Below are positions 1-42,149 of a stretch of 64,000 nt of DNA, one piece after another. Source of the stretch: a bacterium (GTDB lineage: Bacteria > Patescibacteriota > Minisyncoccia > UBA6257 > 02-FULL-45-10c); NCBI GenBank assembly GCA_030700025.1, contig JAUYKI010000010.1, positions 16,648-80,647 on the forward strand. The letters run 5' to 3'. The position numbers and the translations under genes were made by a program. Below the pieces are notes generated by a model that was not told the DNA's origin, made no database searches, and saw nothing but the letters and a program-made list of their open reading frames with translations. Position 1 is the stretch's first letter; each line of letters opens with the position of its first letter.

Positions 1-107
1 AGCGGCGCTGGGCCTGGGGATCAGAAAATGTTCCTTATCTTTTAACTGGTTTTTGGAAAAATAAAAAAATTCCTTGGCGTTCCAAAATATATTGGTCATT
101 TAATTTA

Positions 108-473
108 GTGGAGGGCTATCACTCGTGGGCAACAAATGTGCTGATTATTTTCGCGCTGGGCTGGCTGCCGGTTTTAATCGGCGGGGGCGGATTTAACGCC
201 ACGATTCTTTCTTACCAACTGCCTAAAATTACCCGCGATATCATCGGCCTGTCCAGCATTGGCATTGTGAGCGCGGCAATTTTAAGCACTGTTTTGCTGC
301 CGCCCCGCCCGGGAATCCGGCTCCGGCAATACGCCTGGTATATTCTCCAATGGGCGTTAATGCCGGTTACTTTAATAATTTTTGGCGCCATTCCGGCGCT
401 GGAAGCCCAAACTCGCTTACTGCTCGGCGGAAAATGGCGATTAGGTTTTTGGGTTACGCCCAAAAGCCGATAA
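108..473 (+). CDS. hypothetical multi-pass membrane protein (GTG start; may be the tail of a longer gene)
   Basis: ORF with several hydrophobic helices; no recognisable motif. Confidence 0.3.
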   Translation: MEGYHSWATNVLIIFALGWLPVLIGGGGFNATILSYQLPKITRDIIGLSSIGIVSAAILSTVLLPPRPGIRLRQYAWYILQWALMPVTLIIFGAIPALEAQTRLLLGGKWRLGFWVTPKSR

Positions 474-782
474 AAAAAGTCCGCCTTTGGCGGACTAAAA
501 CCTATTACATTCCGGAAAGCGGATCAGTGTAGATAATTTCGGTCAGTTCGATTAAAACCTCGCCGACCTGAATTCCCAGCCAATAGCCGGCTTCTCTCAT
601 CAAAAGCCACAAACAAATCAGAGCCGCAATGCCGCCCAGAGCCAGCACTACATACACCCATGCTTTCATTGGCGCGCCTCCCTAGATCAATCCCAAAAGA
701 TTGATCGCAAACTGGCTTTATTTTAACTGAAAAATATTCAAAAGTCAATTATCGCGGTTGGAAGATATTGTTGAAAGAGGTT

Positions 783-2930
783 CTATTCTAAATGCACTCG
801 TTTTTGGAATTGCTGGAATCTGGCCGCCAAAAGCGGATAACTTTTCATTTCTAAGTCATTGGAGATAATTTTTTGCGCTGAAGCCCGCGCCGCTTTTACT
901 AATTCAATGTCCCGCAATGCTTCCATGGCAATATCCGGAAGCCCGCTCTGGCTTTCGCCCATAAATTGGCCCGGACCGCGGACTAATAAATCTTTTTCCG
1001 CGAGTTCAAAGCCATTCTTAGCGGTCATCAGAAAGTTCAGCCTCTGCTGAACATTAGCCGAATCCGATTCGGTAAACAACAAACAAAAAGACTGGTGCTC
1101 GCCTCGGCCAACCCGCCCGCGGAACTGGTAAAGCTGGGCTAATCCGAATCTATCCGCTCCCTCCACCATCATAATAGTGGCATTCGGAACATCCACGCCT
1201 ACTTCAATTACCGAAGTAGATACCAAAATATGATATTTCTTGCCGGAAAAATCTTTCATAATCTGGTCCTTTTCCCTTCCTTTCATTTTTCCGTGCAGCA
1301 TCGCCACTTTCAGATCCGGAAAAATCTTAGTGGATAATTTTTCAAATTCTTCGGTAACCGACTTTAATTCCAGGGCTTTCTTCTTGGCCTCCGATAAAAC
1401 CTCGCCTTCCTTTACCGCGCCCGGCGTAATGCGCGGGCAAATCACAAATGCCTGCCTGCCCTTTTTAATCTGTTCTCGGATAAAGTCATAAGCCTTGGGC
1501 CGGTTTTCCGGAGCCACGATTTTGGTGATGATTTCTTTCCGGCCGGCCGGCAATTCCGTAATCAAGGAAACATCCAAGTCTCCGAAAATTGTAAGCGATA
1601 ACGTCCGCGGAATCGGGGTGGCGGACATAGAAAGAAAATGCGGTAAAAATCCGCCTTGCGCCTGGGAAAGCGCTGCCCGCTGTTCCACGCCGAAACGGTG
1701 CTGTTCATCCACGATTGCCAAGCCTAATTTCGGAAAGCGAACTCCTTTTTGAATAATCGCGTGAGTGCCGATAACAATTTTTACCTTGCCGTCCAAAATT
1801 TCCTTCAATAATTTCTGGCGGGAAATTTTAATCTGCGAGCCGTCGCCATAAGAAAGCTCCGCGGCATTCGCGGTAAATAAAGCTACTCCGCCGGATAATC
1901 CGCCCATTGGCGAATTAAATAATTTGGTAATGGTGCGGTAATGCTGGCCAGCCAAAACTTCCGTCGGCGCCAAAAAAGCCGCCTGCAAATCATTTTGCGC
2001 CGCTAAGATGGCGGCAATAGCCGCGATCACGGTTTTTCCGGAACCCACATCTCCCTGCAACAGCCGATTCATCGGCCTAGGCCTTTGTAAATCTTTCAAA
2101 ATTTCCGAAAGCGATTCTTTTTGGGAACTAGTCAGAATAAACGGCAATTTTTCAATTAAGGCGCCGACTTTCGCTTCGTCCACTTTTAAAGCCACTGCCC
2201 TTTCTTCCGCCAGACGGGATTTAATTTTTAAATTATTCAGCTGAAGCAAGAATAAATCTTCAAAAGCAAAGCGCCGTTTCGCCAAATCCGCCTCTTCCAT
2301 TTTTAAAGGAAAATGGATTTTCTTTAATGCCACATTAATATCCGGAAATTTATTTTCTTTCAACGCTTCTTCCGGAAGCCAGTCTTCCACGCGTTCCAGG
2401 CTTTTTAAAATCGGCTTAATTAAAAACCGCAATCCCTTGGAGGTCAGCCCGCGGGTTTCCGGATAAATCGGAATTAATCCGGCGGTATGCTTCGGGCCAA
2501 AACTACTGCTTGCCAAACTCCGGCTATTGGTCACTTCATAGGCCGGGCTGGATAAATAAATTTCCCGCTGGGACTGCATTAATTTTCCGGCAAAATTAGC
2601 GCGCGTTCCCGGGCGCAAAATCTGGGCGATGTACGGCTGATTAAACCAAACCGCCTTTACGCCCCCGGTTTCATCCATAATCACCGCCTCAATAATCGTT
2701 AGGTGCTTTTTCCAGGTGCGGCGAAGATTAACTTTCTGGACTACGCCATGGACTGTGGCCGGCTGATCTAAAACCAGTTCGCTAATCGGAATAATCTTGG
2801 AAAAATCCTCGTAACGGAACGGGAAATGCGTCAAAAGATCACGGACAGTTTTAATTTTTAGCTGAATAAGCTTAGTAATAAACTTAGAGCCAATTTCCGA
2901 AATTTTTACTAGCTCGGTGTCTAAAGTCAT
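783..2930 (-). CDS. recG: ATP-dependent DNA helicase RecG
   Basis: 715 aa; GDVGSGKT Walker A, DEQHRFG helicase motif, RecG-like N-terminal wedge region. Confidence 0.9.
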   Translation of the reverse strand: MTLDTELVKISEIGSKFITKLIQLKIKTVRDLLTHFPFRYEDFSKIIPISELVLDQPATVHGVVQKVNLRRTWKKHLTIIEAVIMDETGGVKAVWFNQPYIAQILRPGTRANFAGKLMQSQREIYLSSPAYEVTNSRSLASSSFGPKHTAGLIPIYPETRGLTSKGLRFLIKPILKSLERVEDWLPEEALKENKFPDINVALKKIHFPLKMEEADLAKRRFAFEDLFLLQLNNLKIKSRLAEERAVALKVDEAKVGALIEKLPFILTSSQKESLSEILKDLQRPRPMNRLLQGDVGSGKTVIAAIAAILAAQNDLQAAFLAPTEVLAGQHYRTITKLFNSPMGGLSGGVALFTANAAELSYGDGSQIKISRQKLLKEILDGKVKIVIGTHAIIQKGVRFPKLGLAIVDEQHRFGVEQRAALSQAQGGFLPHFLSMSATPIPRTLSLTIFGDLDVSLITELPAGRKEIITKIVAPENRPKAYDFIREQIKKGRQAFVICPRITPGAVKEGEVLSEAKKKALELKSVTEEFEKLSTKIFPDLKVAMLHGKMKGREKDQIMKDFSGKKYHILVSTSVIEVGVDVPNATIMMVEGADRFGLAQLYQFRGRVGRGEHQSFCLLFTESDSANVQQRLNFLMTAKNGFELAEKDLLVRGPGQFMGESQSGLPDIAMEALRDIELVKAARASAQKIISNDLEMKSYPLLAARFQQFQKRVHLE

Positions 2931-2937
2931 TGGATGT

Positions 2938-3061
2938 ATCCCGTTAGAGACAACTTAAATTTTTATAAAAAGGCAAAGTGGAGTTAAAAAATATAAAACA
3001 TAGATTATTAATTAAATCGGTCTTTTACGACCATCTAAAGATGGTCTGCCTCTAACGGGAT
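2938..3061 (-). repeat. family A inverted-repeat (MITE-like) element E1
   Basis: terminal inverted repeats ATCCCGTTAGAG...CCTCTAACGGGAT, internal 7-bp hairpin next to one end, AT-rich interior; homologous to E2/E3/E4. Confidence 0.6.
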
Positions 3062-3233
3062 GGATATATTATACCAAATAATAGAAATTCGCAATAATCT
3101 ATAGTGTTAATAACCTCTTGGGAGACGTTGTGCTTTCCCTGCTTTTAATATTGACAAAAAACTAATTTGAATATAAAATATTTCCGAGCTTGGTTCTCTA
3201 AGAACCTGGCAAAAATAAGGAGGTGCTATAGCC

Positions 3234-3440
3234 ATGGCTGATTGCAATCACTGTTCCTTGCAACGCATTCGCAGCAGAGCCAAGCAAGAAAAAAAGAAGG
3301 TAACTCTGCGAGGCGATCGCGGCGGAACGAGCGTTTACGTCCATCCCCGCAATGTGAAAATTAACCGGCTGAGCGATGCCGAAAGGGAAAGATACCGCGC
3401 GTCCTGGATGATGGAACTTTCCGACCACTGTTGTTGCTGA
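3234..3440 (+). CDS. small Cys-rich hypothetical protein (68 aa)
   Basis: AAGGAGG RBS 9 nt upstream; promoter-like TTGACA/TATAAA upstream; CxxC at N-terminus and CCC at C-terminus. Confidence 0.45.
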   Translation: MADCNHCSLQRIRSRAKQEKKKVTLRGDRGGTSVYVHPRNVKINRLSDAERERYRASWMMELSDHCCC

Positions 3441-3447
3441 ATATCGC

Positions 3448-3478
3448 GCGGTCGCCTAAAGCGACCGCTTTTATTTTT
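3448..3478 (+). terminator. rho-independent terminator
   Basis: GCGGTCGC-CTAAA-GCGACCGC hairpin followed by a T-run. Confidence 0.7.
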
Positions 3479-3519
3479 AATTGACGAAGCGCCTCTAAAA
3501 ATTTATTATTCTAACAAAC

Positions 3520-3592
3520 GCACCCATAGCTCAGTTGGTAGAGCAACTCCCTCTTAAGGAGATGGTCGTAGGTTCGATCCCTACTGGGTGCA
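3520..3592 (+). tRNA. tRNA-Lys(CTT), no encoded CCA
   Basis: cloverleaf: acceptor gcaccca/tgggtgc, D arm gctc/gagc, anticodon loop ctCTTaa, T arm gtagg-ttcgatc-cctac. Confidence 0.85.
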
Positions 3593-3676
3593 CACTTCGG
3601 CAGGGCTCAGCGCAAGCACTTCAACAGTTCGGCATAAGCCCAATAAAAAATTCCCTTGCGTTACGCCGGGGAATTT

Positions 3677-4423
3677 TTATTCAGGCAATAAAGTTCCGAT
3701 TAACCAAATACTAAAAATACCTAAGATCATAATTAGAATATGCGCGAATTCCCGAACGCCAGTTTTGTGGCGCAACTCCGGAATTAAATCCGAAATAGAA
3801 ATATAAATAAAAGATCCGGCGGTAATGCTAAGCACTATCGGAATATACGGCTCAAGAGCGCTCCGAAAGATATAACCTAATATCGCTCCGGCCGGCGTCA
3901 TTAAGGCCGCCGCCAAATTATATTTCAAGATTTTCCATCGAGGATATCCATTATGAAGCAAGATGCCAAAATCGCTGATTTCTTGCGGAACCTCGTGGAA
4001 AAATACCGCTACCGTAGTCGCAATGCCCGTAGGAATAGAAATTAAAAAACTTAAAGCAATAGCAATGCCATCCAAAAAATTATGCAAAGCATCGCCGATA
4101 ATAACCGTTAAGCTAAAATCATGGATGTCGCATTTTTCCTGATCGTGGCAATGATAAAAATTTAAAAGCTTTTCTAAAATATAAAAAAGTATAATGCCGG
4201 TTACAAAAGCAATAAAAATGGCTGATTCGGAAACATTCCCGGCTAAACTTTCCGGCAAAAGTTCAAAAATCGCCGCGGCCATCAAAGAGCCGGCGGCAAA
4301 ACTCAAAAGATAAATAGAAAGCCTCTTGGCTAATGCCTCATTAATAAGGAGCAGTATCCCGCCCAGCATCGCTACCACGCTTCCCACCAAGCTCGCTATT
4401 AAAATAATCAGAAAAAGCGTCAT
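3677..4423 (-). CDS. zupT: ZIP-family zinc/iron permease (ZupT-like)
   Basis: 248 aa, 8 TM helices; HEVPQEISDFGILL ZIP signature. Confidence 0.8.
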   Translation of the reverse strand: MTLFLIILIASLVGSVVAMLGGILLLINEALAKRLSIYLLSFAAGSLMAAAIFELLPESLAGNVSESAIFIAFVTGIILFYILEKLLNFYHCHDQEKCDIHDFSLTVIIGDALHNFLDGIAIALSFLISIPTGIATTVAVFFHEVPQEISDFGILLHNGYPRWKILKYNLAAALMTPAGAILGYIFRSALEPYIPIVLSITAGSFIYISISDLIPELRHKTGVREFAHILIMILGIFSIWLIGTLLPE

Positions 4424-4466
4424 TAAACCTAATTATAACGGTAAAATTCCGATTAGCAATTTTTAA

Positions 4467-4495
4467 TTGACTTTTTGTCTATTTAGGAGTAATAT
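4467..4495 (+). promoter_or_regulatory. sigma70-like promoter for the acyl-CoA dehydrogenase gene
   Basis: TTGACT - 17 nt - TAATAT; ATTCGTT-GAAAA-CGAATAC hairpin in the leader. Confidence 0.45.
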
Positions 4496-4577
4496 ATAGG
4501 CGAAGTTCCTTGAAAAAGCCGAATCATTCGTTGAAAACGAATACTCGGCCGAACAAACGGATCAGGGGAGGATAGCC

Positions 4578-6488
4578 ATGGGCATGGACGTAGGAAAGCT
4601 CGGCAAAGGACTGGCAATCGCGGAAGAACAGCGGGACAAGCGCCGGCACAACAGTTTCGTCGGCGACTGCTTTCTCGGTATAGCAAATTTTTCGCGGTTC
4701 CTGGAATGCGCGGAAGAAATTCCCGTTGAAGAACAGCGGATCGCGGACGATCTTCTCTATAATTTGAAAGGGTATCTCTGCCGAAATGTGGATCCGGAAA
4801 AAGTGGACGCAACCAATGAATTGCCCGAAGGGGTGATTGAATGGCTTTGCGAAAACGGATATTTCGGACTGAAAATTCCGCGCGAATATGGAGGCATGGG
4901 CTTGCATCAGACTGCTTATTCCCGAGTTTTGGGAGTGGCGGCCAGCTGGTCCGGCGGTTTAGCGGCTCCGCTTTCCGCGGCCAACACTATCGGCCTTAGC
5001 TATCCGATTTTAAATTACGGCGCTGAAGAACAGAAGAAAAAGTGGCTGCCGATTGTTGCCAAAGTCGTAACGGGCTTTGCCTTTACGGAAGACGAAGCTG
5101 GTTCCGATCCGGCAAACATGAAAACTACTGCCACCCGCGTCAAGGGCGGTTATCTCTTAAACGGCACGAAGTGGTGGACCACCAACGGCCCGATGAGCGA
5201 TACCAAATTCTTGTCGCCTCTGTTGTGCGTTATTGCCAAGACCGTTGATTCGCCCGATGAACTGCAGGCCAGAGCCGATGACAAGACTTACAAACCCAGT
5301 TTCAGCGCGCTGATCGTTCCGACTGACGCTCCGGGAATCCGGATTGTCCAGCGGTGCGATTTCGCCGGACTGAAAGGGATTTACAACGGCATTACGGAAT
5401 TCAAGAATGTTTTCGTTCCAGCTGATCAGCTGATCGGCAAGGAAGGACTGGGATTTCGGATCGCCATTGAAGCGCTGAACACCGGCCGGCTTTCAATTGC
5501 CAGCCTGTGCATCGCGGCGGTCAAGCAAGTTTTACTCATCGGAAATTGGTACGGCCGGAAGCGGAAGCAGTGGGCAACCAAGTCCGCTCCTTCCATCGGC
5601 TATCACGAAATGGTCGGCAGCGGATTTCTGGCAAAGGGCGCGGCTAATACTTTAGCGGCGGAAGCGATGGTTTATTTTGCCTCGCTTCGTGTTGACAACG
5701 GATTAGACGCTCGGCTGGAAGCAGCGGTTTGCAAAGTATTCTCTTCCGAACGCGGATGGGAAACCATTGATGACATGATGCAAGTCCGTGGCGGACGCGG
5801 TTATGAAACTGCGGTCTCGCTGGCTAAGCGCGGAGAACCGGCTTTGCCGTTGGAAAGAATTTGGCGCGACTTCCGGATCAACCGGATCTTTGAAGGCGCC
5901 AGTGAAATTCTTATTCTCTGGCTGTTGCGCGAAGGCAGTGATGAGTATAAAAAGCGCGGTGATGTTTTCTTCGGTCCCGGCAATTGGTGGAAAAAGTTCA
6001 CTACTGCCATGGGATTCGCCTGGGATATCCTGAGGCTGCAAAGCCGACAGCAGATTCCCGACGAAGTTTTGGACAGGATTGATCCGCGGCTCCACTCTCA
6101 TCTGTACTTCGTGGAAAAGCACATCCGCAAACTGGCCCTGTCCATGATTTTGATTTCGGCGAAGTATCGCGACAAGCTGATTCATAAACAGCTGATCTTT
6201 AAGAGGCTATTCTGGATCGCCAGCGAACTTTACGCCATGAGCGCGATTTGTTTCTATACTTCCCCGAAACGGCCCGAAGGATATGTCGTTGCCGATGACC
6301 GCAATCTGGATTTGGCCGACCTCTACTGCAAAGAGGCCCGAGCCAGAATTAAGAGCGCTCTTCAGTCGTTGAATCACAATACAGATTCGGAAGCCCGCGC
6401 GGTAGCCAAGCGGCTGCTCGCCGGCGAAGATGACGAATGGCTCAAGAGAGACATTGTCCCGATCGTTGATCATCTTGGATTAAAGTAA
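4578..6488 (+). CDS. acyl-CoA dehydrogenase family protein (long, 636 aa)
   Basis: ACAD core motifs (FAFTEDEAGSDPANMKTTA, GTKWWTTNGPMSD); C-terminal extension; higher GC than neighbours. Confidence 0.8.
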   Translation: MGMDVGKLGKGLAIAEEQRDKRRHNSFVGDCFLGIANFSRFLECAEEIPVEEQRIADDLLYNLKGYLCRNVDPEKVDATNELPEGVIEWLCENGYFGLKIPREYGGMGLHQTAYSRVLGVAASWSGGLAAPLSAANTIGLSYPILNYGAEEQKKKWLPIVAKVVTGFAFTEDEAGSDPANMKTTATRVKGGYLLNGTKWWTTNGPMSDTKFLSPLLCVIAKTVDSPDELQARADDKTYKPSFSALIVPTDAPGIRIVQRCDFAGLKGIYNGITEFKNVFVPADQLIGKEGLGFRIAIEALNTGRLSIASLCIAAVKQVLLIGNWYGRKRKQWATKSAPSIGYHEMVGSGFLAKGAANTLAAEAMVYFASLRVDNGLDARLEAAVCKVFSSERGWETIDDMMQVRGGRGYETAVSLAKRGEPALPLERIWRDFRINRIFEGASEILILWLLREGSDEYKKRGDVFFGPGNWWKKFTTAMGFAWDILRLQSRQQIPDEVLDRIDPRLHSHLYFVEKHIRKLALSMILISAKYRDKLIHKQLIFKRLFWIASELYAMSAICFYTSPKRPEGYVVADDRNLDLADLYCKEARARIKSALQSLNHNTDSEARAVAKRLLAGEDDEWLKRDIVPIVDHLGLK

Positions 6489-20950: not shown

Positions 20951-21005
20951 AATTCCGAACCGTCCGATTGGAGAGATCCGAAAGGACGGTTTTTTATTAT
21001 TCGTG

Positions 21006-21077
21006 TGCCCTTGCTAGGAATTGAACCTAGAGCTCGACGTTCGAAGCGTCGCGTGATATCCATTTCACTACAAGGGC
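21006..21077 (-). tRNA. tRNA-Arg(TCG), no encoded CCA
   Basis: reverse complement: acceptor gcccttg/caagggc, anticodon arm cgacg-ctTCGaa-cgtcg, T arm ctagg-ttcaatt-cctag. Confidence 0.8.
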
Positions 21078-21092
21078 AATTTTAATGTAACT

Positions 21093-21770
21093 TTATTTGA
21101 TTTGCAGAGTTTTTACAAATAATTTTTGCCAACCTAAAATCTTTCTTAAATGATTTATTCCACCGACATATAATCTTAAACACCCCTTATAATCAGGTAT
21201 TTTTTTAAAATTATATGGGGTAAATTTATACACCGTTGACTGAAATTGATTTAAACTAATTTTTAACCCTTGAGACCAATATTTTTCTAATTTTTCATCG
21301 GCGTATGGTTTGTGTATGTATAATCTGAATTTCATCTTTTCCCTGGGTATATCCAAAAACTTATTAAACCAATTAATCATTATTTTAATAATCATTGGGT
21401 CGGAATTTATTATTTCCGTGTTACCCCCTCTTTTACTTCCTTCGGCCCAGTACAAAGATAGCCCGATTATAAACAAAGGATTAGTAATAAATCCGGCCAA
21501 ACTCGAAGAAGCTTCTTTAAAAATTGCTTTTGTTCTTTGAATGCGTTTTTTTCTATTGGATATAGCGGCTTTAAATCTCGCTTTATCCATTTTTGAATTT
21601 ATTCGTTTTTCTAAATTATTTAATTGGCCCGGCGTAAGGCTAATATATTTTAACCACCCGGATAGCGTGCCCTTAGAAAGGTTTGGTATGCGACTCCTTA
21701 TTTCATTATATGACCGGCCGCTCTTTCTTAATTTTATAGCCAATTGTTTTTCAATAATTCTTTCTTTCAT
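21093..21770 (-). CDS. AT-rich HTH-domain protein with LAGLIDADG-like motif (possible homing-endonuclease-like gene)
   Basis: N-terminal HTH (RKSGRSYNEIRSRI); FIIGLSLYWAEGSK resembles LAGLIDADG/AEGS motif; about 30% GC versus about 46% background; adjacent to tRNA-Arg. Confidence 0.35.
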   Translation of the reverse strand: MKERIIEKQLAIKLRKSGRSYNEIRSRIPNLSKGTLSGWLKYISLTPGQLNNLEKRINSKMDKARFKAAISNRKKRIQRTKAIFKEASSSLAGFITNPLFIIGLSLYWAEGSKRGGNTEIINSDPMIIKIMINWFNKFLDIPREKMKFRLYIHKPYADEKLEKYWSQGLKISLNQFQSTVYKFTPYNFKKIPDYKGCLRLYVGGINHLRKILGWQKLFVKTLQIK

Positions 21771-21894
21771 ATCTTAATGGTATATTTACCATTATATCAT
21801 AGTACGGATGACTTTTCAACTAAGAAGTTTTAAGCTATCTTAAACGTGAATGGAACATTTCCCTAAATTTCGAGATAATGAGAAGGAACGAGCT

Positions 21895-23340
21895 ATGGAA
21901 ATACCAAAAGCAGTAATTGAAGTAGCCAAGGGTTTGAAAGAAGCGGGCTTTGAAGCTTATTTAGTCGGCGGTTGTGTCCGGGATTTTTTGCTAAACAAAG
22001 AACCGAACGATTGGGATTTAACTACTAATGCCCGGCCGGAACAAATCCAGGAAGTTTTTCCGGATAGCGTTTATGAAAATTCTTTCGGTACCGTCGGAGT
22101 AAAAACCCGATCCGGAGAATCGGATACCGCATTAGTAGAAGCCACCACTTACCGCCTGGAAGGAAAATATACGGATAAGCGGCATCCGGATGAAATTACT
22201 TTCGCGAAAACTATTGAGGAAGATTTAGCGCGCCGGGATTTTACCATCAACGCGCTGGCAATGGATTTGAACCATAAAATCGTGGATCCGTTCGGCGGGC
22301 AGGAAGATTTAAAAAATAAAATGATCCGCGCCGTCGGCGATCCGGAAGCCAGATTCCAAGAAGACGCCTTGCGCTTGATGCGGGCTGTGCGCTTTATGGC
22401 GAAGTTAAATTTCCAGATTGATCCGGAAACAGAATCGGCAATTAAAAAACACGCCGGACTTTTAGAATTCATCGCCAAAGAAAGAGTCCGCGATGAACTT
22501 TCTAAAATGCTGATGGCGACCGACGCCGCCAGTGGAATCCGAAAAATGCAGGAGTCCGGATTATTAAAATTTGTTATGCCGGAATTAGAAGAGGGGGTAG
22601 GCTGCGGCCAAAACAAACATCATATCTATGATGTCTTTGAACACATTGTCCGCGCCTTAGATTATTCCGCCAGAAAAAATCATCCCTTTGAAGTCCGCTT
22701 AGCCGCGCTGTTGCACGACGTGGGAAAACCGCGAAGCAAAGAAGGCGATGGTCCGGATAGCCATTTTTACGCCCATCAAACGATCGGAGAAAAAATGGCC
22801 CTGAAAATGCTGGATCGGCTTCATTTTTCCAGAGATGTAATTGAACGAGTGGCGTTATTAGTTAAAGAACACATGTTTGTTTATGATCCGGAATCCGTTA
22901 CTCCGGCGGGCGTCCGCCGGCTGGTAAGGCGAGTAGGGCCGGAAAATATGGATAATTTGCTTTTACTTAGAGAAGCGGACCGGATCGGCTCCGGCGTTCC
23001 CAAAGCCCAGCCTTATCGCTTACGGCATCTTAAATTCTTAATCGAAAAAGTCAGTAAAGATCCGATTAGCGTAAAAATGCTGAAAGTAGGCGGCCAAGAC
23101 ATCTTACAGGAAGCCGGAATGGAACCCGGTCCGAAAGTAGGCAGTATCCTTTCTATCTTATTGGAAGAAGTGTTAGACGACCCGTCTTTAAATGACCGGG
23201 GCCTTTTGCTTATCCGGATAAAAGATTTGGCGCAAATGGAAAGTAAGAAATTGGAGGAAATGGCAAAATTCGCCAAAAAATCCGCCAATGAAGCGCAAAA
23301 TAGAATTGACGAGGAAATTAAGAAAAAATACTTTGTTTAA
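21895..23340 (+). CDS. cca: CCA-adding tRNA nucleotidyltransferase with HD domain
   Basis: AYLVGGCVRDFLL..DWDLTT head motif; HD motif LLHDVGKP; alternative upstream start at 21850. Confidence 0.85.
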   Translation: MEIPKAVIEVAKGLKEAGFEAYLVGGCVRDFLLNKEPNDWDLTTNARPEQIQEVFPDSVYENSFGTVGVKTRSGESDTALVEATTYRLEGKYTDKRHPDEITFAKTIEEDLARRDFTINALAMDLNHKIVDPFGGQEDLKNKMIRAVGDPEARFQEDALRLMRAVRFMAKLNFQIDPETESAIKKHAGLLEFIAKERVRDELSKMLMATDAASGIRKMQESGLLKFVMPELEEGVGCGQNKHHIYDVFEHIVRALDYSARKNHPFEVRLAALLHDVGKPRSKEGDGPDSHFYAHQTIGEKMALKMLDRLHFSRDVIERVALLVKEHMFVYDPESVTPAGVRRLVRRVGPENMDNLLLLREADRIGSGVPKAQPYRLRHLKFLIEKVSKDPISVKMLKVGGQDILQEAGMEPGPKVGSILSILLEEVLDDPSLNDRGLLLIRIKDLAQMESKKLEEMAKFAKKSANEAQNRIDEEIKKKYFV

Positions 23341-40648: not shown

Positions 40649-40654
40649 ACTAAG

Positions 40655-40800
40655 CTCAGCCGTACCACATCTCCTCTACCGCTCAAACTCCCGGCGAGAA
40701 TTTTCACTGGGTCTCGGGCTTCGCTCTTTCTACCTATTGGCGGAAAGCCCTGCCCGCTCAGCCTTCAGCCCGTGCTACGGAGAATAAGGCTTTCTCGCTT
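40655..40800 (-). repeat. mosaic GC-rich element C (partial homolog of element A interior)
   Basis: TGCCCGCTCAGCCTTCAGCCCGTGCTACGGAGAATAAGGCTTTC parallels 18296-18345; lacks the terminal helix and promoter. Confidence 0.45.
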
Positions 40801-40984
40801 AAATATTACGCGGGTATCGGAAGCAAGAATATTTTGCCTCTAAAAAATAAAGGTCTATCTTTTTCGGCCTTGATTAGACGGATTTAATAGCCTAGTCTAA
40901 GCAGTTGGAAAAAATCATTAACGCTTCCATTTGTATTATTTTTTTCTTGCATATGCTATAATAGTTATATAAATCAGTATTTTA

Positions 40985-41146
40985 AAAAATAGAGGATTGG
41001 AAACCCTCTTATAAGTACCTCTGGCAGTAAACCTGCCCTTACTTCAGCGTAGGGATTCCCTAAAAAGTTTCCATACGCCAAAAGCGTATTCCCGTAAAAA
41101 GGAGGTACGCCCTACGTTGAAGCAAGTGCAGGTTTTTTGTTTGAAA
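40985..41146 (+). ncRNA. candidate structured small RNA with intrinsic terminator
   Basis: 24-bp interrupted closing helix (41031-41054 with 41110-41133) followed by TTTTTT; internal ATACGC-CAAAA-GCGTAT hairpin; exposed AAGGAGG; no adjacent ORF. Confidence 0.35.
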
Positions 41147-41660
41147 TAAAAAAACACCCCTTTTCAGGGGCGGTAGTAGGAAGATAGTGGAGCGGTTAAC
41201 TCTGGGGATTTATATAGTCCCCCAAAGGATTTTAGCTAAATCCTTAGACGTATTACGTAATACGCATTTATCTATCAATCTATTAGTGCTTCTGGGAAAG
41301 GGTGTTTTTTGATTAACTTATATTCTATTCTAAAAGAATTTTCAAGTCAATACCAACCGCTTGATATACTACTTTTATAGTATCACAATCCTTAACGGCA
41401 CTGTTAATAAGTTGTTAATACTTATTTAGTGTATTTTCCTAAATCTTTTTGAATTTTTTTCTCTTGAGCTTCTATTTCAAATTGAATTTCTTCTCCATTA
41501 ACTCATAATTCCCATAAACTCCAGTTCCCAACGGACCATCTCTTGAGATAACGTCTATAAACATTTCCGTCATCGCAAACCACATATTCAAAATCGCCAT
41601 TTTTACTTCTAAAGAAATTTATTATTTTCATAATTTTATTATGACAAATTATTCTTTTAA

Positions 41661-42149
41661 TTAAAAACTTAATCTATCTTTAATAAAGTTTAAAAATGGT
41701 TGCCAAATAGGGCTTGTAATAATTGTTCCGATTATAGTAAGTAAAACAATTTTTAAATCTCCAAATTCCTCTGGAAGATATTTAAAATAAAAATATGATT
41801 TTCTTAGAAGCTTCTTGCCCTTACTAGTTAAATATAAATACTGTCCAGTAACTATTTTAACCCCATCTTCGTCTGAAGAAGTGAGGGCGCCATTAGTTTC
41901 CGTAACTCTTTCTATTAAATATCCATCTTCTAAGCATTCGTCTACTAAATATCTTATCTTTTTCCATTCTTCTCTATTAGTTTCTAAAATTTTTCTTATA
42001 TCTAGTCCGTATTTCTTTTTACCAACATACGCAAAAAAATTTCCTCTTTCAACACCCTCTTTGATGGCATCAATTTTTGTTTGATGCCCCAATTCGGGAG
42101 AAGAATGATAATCTCGTAAATAACTGACTATTTCTCTTTCTTCCCACAT
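41661..42149 (-). CDS. AT-rich hypothetical protein with C-terminal TM helix (162 aa)
   Basis: about 30% GC; no known motif. Confidence 0.45.
   Translation of the reverse strand: MWEEREIVSYLRDYHSSPELGHQTKIDAIKEGVERGNFFAYVGKKKYGLDIRKILETNREEWKKIRYLVDECLEDGYLIERVTETNGALTSSDEDGVKIVTGQYLYLTSKGKKLLRKSYFYFKYLPEEFGDLKIVLLTIIGTIITSPIWQPFLNFIKDRLSF

Follow-up and report, generated by a model that had tools for sequence, protein, structure and literature searches.

The window, a 64,000-nucleotide (nt) stretch of contig JAUYKI010000010.1 from a member of the Patescibacteriota, carries an open reading frame (ORF) of 225 codons that lies between the divergently oriented cca gene and a tRNA-Arg(UCG) gene of its own strand (Table 1). 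This ORF encodes a member of a very large, unannotated protein family, found directly 5' of particular tRNA genes in Patescibacteria and in huge phages (as labelled in IMG/VR). The preliminary description of the locus had drawn attention to an AT-rich reading frame of 225 amino acids (aa) beside a same-strand tRNA-Arg, and this holds on measurement, with the tRNA 15 nt away and a GC content of 31.1% (29% at third codon positions, GC3) as compared with 44.7% for the window and about 45% for the neighboring genes cca and nusA. Such AT-richness is reached in fewer than 1% of ORF-sized windows within the 64-kb stretch. A public metagenome-assembled genome (MAG) of an uncultured bacterium encodes a 100% identical protein, which is annotated there as a “hypothetical protein.”

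The structure predicted by AlphaFold2, with the family alignment as input, is a confident one (predicted local distance difference test, pLDDT, of 94.6) and consists of a three-helix helix-turn-helix (HTH) at residues 2–40, a helix of 48 residues (47–94), and an alpha/beta domain at residues 98–221 with the LAGLIDADG fold. The N-terminal HTH proposed earlier is thus borne out by the model, and the Pfam family HTH_23 is matched by 53 of 60 relatives. An alignment of these 60 proteins, drawn from 312 full-length relatives, has among its invariant positions L14, R15, G18, and W39 toward the N terminus and Y107, W108, E110, G111, N122, S123, H153, W165, K182, K189, Y194, and G196 in the C-terminal part, with K113 at the end of the motif helix nearly invariant. 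In a second alignment, comprising 55 diverse C-terminal domains from all subfamilies and from the phage relatives, the glycine of the motif is invariant and its acidic residue (E) is at least 90% conserved. Since the window gene is intact and retains every family-invariant residue, the earlier suggestion that it might be a remnant has to be given up.

The segment previously likened to a LAGLIDADG helix reads G-L-S-L-Y-W-A-E-G-S at residues 103–112, as expected for that motif, and the C-terminal domain contains the alpha-beta-beta-alpha-beta-beta-alpha core of the fold. When the profile of the 55 C-terminal domains is compared with the PDB sequence set, I-DmoI is the sole match below E 0.4, with an E-value of 0.0019 and nine distinct I-DmoI sequences. 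The family pattern “LYwAEGsk...fsNsdpemiklflkwl” aligns with residues 113–145 of I-DmoI (LYVAEGDKTLKRLRIWNKNKALLEIVSRWLNNL), and the motif itself with LYVAEGDK at residues 113–120, the second LAGLIDADG motif of that enzyme; E110 falls on the position of E117, one of the two catalytic acidic residues of I-DmoI. As judged from sequence, this I-DmoI-specific match places the C-terminal domain in the LAGLIDADG superfamily, apparently as a member too divergent for the Pfam models, and the resemblance noticed in the preliminary description has accordingly gained a concrete counterpart.

Table 1. Features of the ORF locus, in window coordinates.
Feature	Position	Strand	Remarks
ORF, 225 aa	21093..21770	-	ATG start; stop codon 21093-21095; HTH, long helix, single LAGLIDADG-like domain
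N-terminal HTH, residues 1-45	21636..21770	-	recognition-helix region SKGTLSGWLK; W39 invariant
Single long alpha-helix, residues 47-94	21489..21632	-	links HTH to catalytic-type domain; subfamily-specific sequence
LAGLIDADG-fold domain, residues 96-225	21096..21485	-	
FIIGLSLYWAEGSK, residues 100-113	21432..21473	-	LAGLIDADG-equivalent helix end
ORF promoter, near-consensus	21791..21819	-	-35 TTGAAA (21819-21814), 17-nt spacer, extended -10 TGATATAAT (21799-21791); 11/12 matches plus TG
Hairpin / inverted repeat, 8 bp	21775..21794	-	TAATGGTA-aata-TACCATTA; ends 4 nt before ATG; overlaps -10 box
Spacer, 15 nt, ORF stop codon to tRNA +1	21078..21092	-	no separate promoter predicted
tRNA-Arg(UCG)	21005..21077	-	ARAGORN and Rfam; CCA not encoded; conserved downstream partner of the ORF's protein subfamily
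Hairpin 3' of tRNA	20958..20991	-	15-nt arms, 80% complementary, 4-nt loop; between convergent genes
cca (CCA-adding enzyme)	21850..23340	+	divergent from ORF; context gene

The homology search that yielded the 312 full-length relatives (about 225 aa each) places those with a taxonomic label in the Patescibacteria (Harrison-, Pace-, Nealson-, and Moranbacteria) or in MAGs given as unclassified bacterium. An exhaustive profile search returns 6,687 clusters (50% identity) at E ≤ 1e-3 and 4,027 at E ≤ 1e-10, and with one genome taken per GTDB species there are at least 600 stretches with the family pattern; among the matches listed, 596 of 600 are confirmed by tblastn. Four proteins of 400–576 aa (P0146, P0150, P0157, and P0161) contain two to four family stretches each and could be fusions or gene-calling artefacts.

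The linkage to tRNA genes is a property of the family as a whole. In every one of the relatives examined first, the homolog is followed by a same-strand tRNA-Arg(UCG) within 0–20 nt, and the paralogs in those loci precede tRNA-Gly(GCC). Over the loci fetched (numbered with an L below), with a tRNA counted at −60 to +100 nt from the ORF end, 90 of 99 family ORFs have a same-strand tRNA downstream, as do only 9 of the 440 remaining long ORFs of that DNA (p 1e-80 by Fisher's test). The median distance from ORF to tRNA is 6 nt, with 25 ORFs extending 9–39 nt into the tRNA gene. Protein clusters correspond almost one-to-one to the identity of the downstream tRNA, which is Arg-UCG for 40 family ORFs, Gln-UUG for 29, Gly-GCC for 9, Arg-UCU for 7, Lys-CUU for 4, and Gly-UCC for 1, while no family ORF is found upstream of the neighboring tRNA-Pro(UGG) in any of 23 instances. 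The pattern LYWAEG.K...F.NSD is common to all classes, and class-specific residues are located at about positions 47–75 and 150–200. The idea that the tRNA gene is a landing zone for such an ORF is strengthened by these counts because tRNA adjacency defines the whole family.

More distant relatives, 13 in number and 27–34% identical, with the LYWAEG motif and the HTH kept, are present on IMG/VR contigs of up to 498 kb, which carry a huge-phage label from that database and could be misassigned small bacterial genomes. Their genes are embedded in dense tRNA arrays, with as many as 23 tRNAs per 5 kb, and often immediately precede tRNA-His, Lys-UUU, Cys, or Leu-CAG. A tblastn search of deposited phage genomes gives no family match. 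Three contigs of 184–340 kb (L094, positions 1–5211, as well as L095 and L097) have a family member among the array tRNAs, with 23 tRNAs in 5.2 kb in L094.

The promoter found 5' of the ORF and the lack of a predicted one in the 15-nt gap mean that the ORF occupies the 5' leader of the tRNA, and ORF and tRNA-Arg are probably co-transcribed. Upstream of the ORF promoter there is a motif of the type “aaaactt...ttgaaaa,” as in the tRNA-Arg promoters of ORF-less sites. At these empty sites the tRNA-Arg promoter is composed of a −35-like “cTTG-N7-CAAt” and a TAGAAT-type −10 box, and it ends 8–15 nt before tRNA +1. The −35 region of empty-site promoters (L101–L114, 40–70 nt 5' of tRNA-Arg(UCG)) takes the palindromic form “aaaaCTTG-N7-CAAt,” to which a window sequence at about 21812–21831 is related. 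Many occupied sites of the Arg-UCG class have TAGTAGACT or TAGTATACT overlapping the ORF stop, about 10–15 nt before tRNA +1; this element, which is absent from the window, might be a tRNA-proximal −10 box.

Many Patescibacteria share the head-to-head arrangement of cca and tRNA-Arg(UCG), whether or not the ORF stands in between (e.g., L101–L136), so that the comparison of presence and absence at this tRNA, as suggested in the preliminary description, finds the site both occupied and empty. Divergent cca stands upstream of the ORF in 34 fetched loci, as it does in the window. In metagenome cca loci sampled irrespective of the ORF, the head-to-head site is empty in about 17 cases and occupied in 2 (L141 and L149), and the cca most similar to that of the window belongs to the occupied site L149. 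L114 is an empty site at which the 5' half of the tRNA equals that of the window over the 24 nt compared. The Gly-class ORF occupies its position between tRNA-Arg and tRNA-Gly in 9 loci and is missing there in at least 13, on branches scattered over the cca tree, and the Lys-class ORF is present in L103 with L102 and L108 empty at the same place. Tandem Gly-class copies lie upstream of one tRNA-Gly(GCC) in L017 (4958–6324) and L037 (4774–6168), and L020 has an inverted unit of ORF and tRNA. About 8 copies are truncated or frameshifted vs. 105 that are full-length. The same site with and without the gene, together with signs of gain, loss, and decay, as would be looked for in a selfish gene, is therefore observed at cca/tRNA-Arg, Gly-class, and Lys-class sites. 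In three loci a 5' fragment of the cognate tRNA is located just upstream of the ORF (L083, 1763–1902; L065, 2843–2982; L052, 2127–2266), extending over tRNA positions 1–38, through the anticodon loop, in L083 and ending near positions 27–29 in L065 and L052. These fragments look like footprints of imprecise insertion; no matching tRNA 3' remnants were found downstream of the ORF in the three loci. The 550–650-nt Arg-Lys spacers of empty loci contain no decayed ORF remnants at E 1e-3.

The reading that we prefer, with somewhat better than even confidence, is that the ORF is a free-standing gene of the LAGLIDADG homing-endonuclease type with an added HTH, lodged in the 5' leader of tRNA-Arg(UCG), and we lean slightly toward the window copy being an active homing enzyme rather than a tamed DNA binder. 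In such a system, a strong promoter of the tRNA type would drive a single transcript of ORF and tRNA, from which RNase P, cutting at tRNA +1, would free a normal tRNA; the insertion would therefore be nearly neutral, at little cost to the host, and splicing would not be needed. Leader processing would in this way play the role that splicing plays for intron-borne endonuclease genes. The protein, which we infer to be a single-motif nuclease, would act as a homodimer with metal-dependent cleavage based on E110, like other single-motif LAGLIDADG enzymes, and its target would be DNA within or at the edge of the cognate tRNA gene, or at the junction with its promoter, in alleles that lack the ORF. 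Repair of the cut would then copy the ORF into the ORF-less allele. The HTH would contribute DNA binding and may repress the ORF's own promoter.

Several observations weigh against this reading and have to be set beside it. The AlphaFold2 model has a short beta1-beta2 hairpin, where classical enzymes have long hairpins that read DNA, and it shows two inserted helices separating beta3 from beta4. Foldseek against the PDB gives no significant match, and its top 50 entries include no LAGLIDADG protein, only generic alpha/beta sandwiches. The Pfam check proposed in the preliminary description came out negative, as neither the three models named there (PF00961, PF03161, PF14528) nor PF14527 match the window protein at E ≤ 10, and LAGLIDADG_3 is matched by only 1 of the 55 C-terminal domains, with an E-value of 0.059. 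The mode of inheritance points in the same direction. ORF GC tracks that of the host flanks (r 0.80), ORF identity correlates with cca identity over 496 pairs (r 0.64) without strong outliers, and nucleotide identity to the closest relative shows no step at the ORF borders. Nor do the tRNAs of occupied sites differ from those of empty ones in any consistent way that could account for self-immunity.

LAGLIDADG families are absent among the 25 families listed of the 68 that the 60 relatives match in Pfam, hhalign of the family against I-CreI alone gives no signal, and nothing meaningful comes from scanning the single sequence with Pfam, PHROGs, NCBIfam, and PADLOC or from comparing it with PDB sequences. 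There is no Pfam or PHROGs match of the window protein to GIY-YIG. A match to DotA (E 0.014) was dropped as below threshold.

The gene looks, from sequence comparison, to have been inherited largely vertically in this lineage. Its closest relatives, in L181 (70%) and L182 (65%), have the same context and an equally AT-rich ORF; against L181, the window ORF shows 70% identity and its cca, with gaps left out, about 63%. The preliminary description would have been contradicted by conserved synteny and normal composition in relatives together with the lack of any nuclease fold. Conserved synteny is indeed what the relatives show, the predicted nuclease fold is not missing, and the AT shift turns out to be a trait of the family, with ORF GC below that of the flanks in 80 of 84 loci by a mean of 6 points (−6) and by 13.6 points (−13.6) in the window.

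A first alternative is a domesticated LAGLIDADG/HTH protein with a function similar to that of WhiA, a non-cleaving regulator whose binding to DNA of the promoter or of the tRNA gene would set the expression of the adjacent tRNA, and perhaps of cca; the linkage would then reflect an operon and not mobility. We consider this unlikely, although it is the alternative that fares best. WhiA has lost its catalytic acidic residues, but every subfamily of the ORF family keeps the acidic residue, the glycine, and the lysine of the motif invariant or almost invariant, and the WhiA-family models PF14527 and PF10298 give no match for the window protein. A regulator essential to the tRNA should not be missing at about 17 of 19 syntenic sites, and neither tandem duplication nor decay to fragments would be expected of it. 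There is also no evident reason why such a regulator should serve only five or six isoacceptors and never tRNA-Pro(UGG) (0/23).

A second alternative holds that the ORF is a passenger gene of some other enzymatic function that exploits strong tRNA promoters, with the resemblance to LAGLIDADG proteins convergent or non-functional. The generic character of the Foldseek matches, the lack of Pfam membership, and a topology that deviates from the canonical alpha-beta-beta-alpha-beta-beta-alpha order all speak for it; against them stand the I-DmoI match and the conserved motif described above, and we give a passenger role little credence.

The DNA in front of the start codon bears on a third alternative. 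The hairpin that overlaps the −10 box is not significant on its own (z −1.6), but its position is that of a GAAC...GTTC inverted repeat in many relatives, of which the window version is degenerate, with GTAC in place of GAAC. GAAC occurs at −60 to −16 from the ATG in 68 of 93 family members, and in 22 loci a GAAC-N8...N8-GTTC inverted repeat with a nearly constant arm spacing (31–35 nt) brackets the extended −10 box and ends by the ATG. Covariation between the arms is significant (0.357 vs. 0.196 in shuffles, 0/500; 0.05–0.14 in slid registers). Promoters of the window do not in general combine GAAC with an extended −10 box. Going by its form, the repeat could be an operator for an HTH dimer, providing autorepression such as is known for I-TevI, or else an RNA hairpin. 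That the upstream (T)TCGAAC might be an antisense copy of the cognate tRNA T-arm was considered and rejected, since the shared piece is only GTTCGA and does not covary with the T-stem; only some Gln-class 3' arms resemble tRNA-Gln positions 44–59.

In the third alternative the protein would be a maturase-like LAGLIDADG protein directed at RNA, with either the co-transcribed pre-tRNA or the 5' hairpin of its own message as its ligand, and would aid or control processing or translation. LAGLIDADG proteins have been recruited as RNA maturases in known cases, and the subfamilies specific for tRNA identity, the compensatory changes in the repeat with many G.U-type pairs on the sense strand, and the frequent extension of the ORFs into the first 9–15 nt of the tRNA would all fit such a role. 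The extended −10 box, however, lies inside the “loop” of the repeat, and transcripts from that promoter would therefore miss the 5' arm. The HTH is moreover of the DNA-binding transposase/resolvase type, there is no intron or ribozyme (tRNAs are the only Rfam matches), and at empty sites these tRNAs do their work in the absence of the protein, so we hold this role to be very improbable.

An integrase island is rejected in view of an insert of only about 760 bp, without recombinase or att/tRNA-derived repeats and on the 5' side of the tRNA (islands usually duplicate its 3' part), and so is an intron- or intein-encoded endonuclease, as the tRNA is intact and the ORF sits in no self-splicing element.

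At the Rfam gathering threshold the 64-kb window contains seven tRNAs only, with no rRNA, RNase P RNA, tmRNA, or riboswitch, and no group I or II intron, the tRNA-Arg downstream of the ORF being intact. No transposon-like ends, att repeats, flanking direct repeats, or tRNA-derived repeats were found in the window. The hairpin 3' of the tRNA is a possible terminator of the ORF-tRNA unit, for which the terminator scan makes no call. Elsewhere, the GC minimum of the window (0.28–0.30) is a stretch of about 1 kb without an ORF of at least 70 aa, within 40650–42149, and after this lowest-GC stretch there is a 162-aa ORF without obvious relatives on the reverse strand (41661–42149).

Returning to the homing-endonuclease reading, a broader and more tentative proposal, which we entertain as possible while doubting it somewhat, is that the family forms a large, previously undescribed radiation of HTH-LAGLIDADG endonucleases. 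These would use tRNA leaders as a splicing-free safe harbor, with RNase P in place of splicing and with each subfamily reading the DNA of one isoacceptor gene, and would mobilize themselves, and perhaps linked tRNA genes, among Patescibacteria and huge phages with tRNA arrays. A full-text literature search found no description of an HTH-LAGLIDADG family in tRNA leaders. If the proposal is true, the tRNA leader, removed by RNase P, would be a third harmless home for homing-type genes in essential genes, besides introns and inteins. Several thousand “hypothetical proteins,” among the commoner unannotated gene types in Patescibacteria, would be given a function, and some of the shuffling of tRNA neighborhoods in reduced genomes and in huge-phage tRNA arrays would be explained. 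The family could also be a source of compact meganuclease scaffolds, already diversified in nature, and the accompanying tRNA genes might reveal the specificity of each.

Among known proteins, I-DmoI is the closest by sequence and structure. The ORF differs from I-DmoI and the other LAGLIDADG enzymes (I-CreI, I-CeuI, and the inteins PI-PfuI and TliVMA) in lying outside any intron or intein and in having an extra N-terminal HTH and 48-residue helix, as well as in its short beta1-beta2 hairpin, the two helices between beta3 and beta4, and the lack of detection by LAGLIDADG_1, 2, or 3. By domain combination the closest protein is WhiA (DUF199), in which two degenerate LAGLIDADG domains devoid of the catalytic acidic residues are followed by a C-terminal HTH; in the ORF product the HTH is N-terminal, there is a single LAGLIDADG domain, and the acidic residue is conserved. 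WhiA itself is not known to be linked to tRNA genes, unlike the ORF family.

By niche, the nearest cases are the GIY-YIG endonuclease SegB of phage T4, which cuts within a tRNA gene region and drives the inheritance of that region (PMC2330249), and genes for HNH endonucleases that border tRNA gene arrays or lie inside them (PMC8421152). These share with the ORF, and in particular with its phage relatives, the situation of a free-standing endonuclease-type gene among tRNA genes. They have another nuclease fold, however, and the ORF subfamilies are each locked directly 5' of one isoacceptor and co-oriented with it, in most cases at a single tRNA gene on a Patescibacteria chromosome. In bacteria of the candidate phyla radiation (CPR), LAGLIDADG endonuclease genes are found in rRNA insertions and introns (PMC11270868), and a survey of group I introns in Patescibacteria tRNA genes reports HNH genes with the ORF family unmentioned (PMC13011429). 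The host phylum, the enzyme superfamily, and the targeting of highly conserved RNA genes are all shared between these elements and the ORF, but the former are inside the RNA gene and need splicing or rRNA fragmentation, whereas the ORF is outside the mature tRNA, in its leader. What is known here is thus the LAGLIDADG superfamily fold and motif, and what is new is the architecture of HTH, long helix, and one domain and the isoacceptor-specific niche in the tRNA leader.
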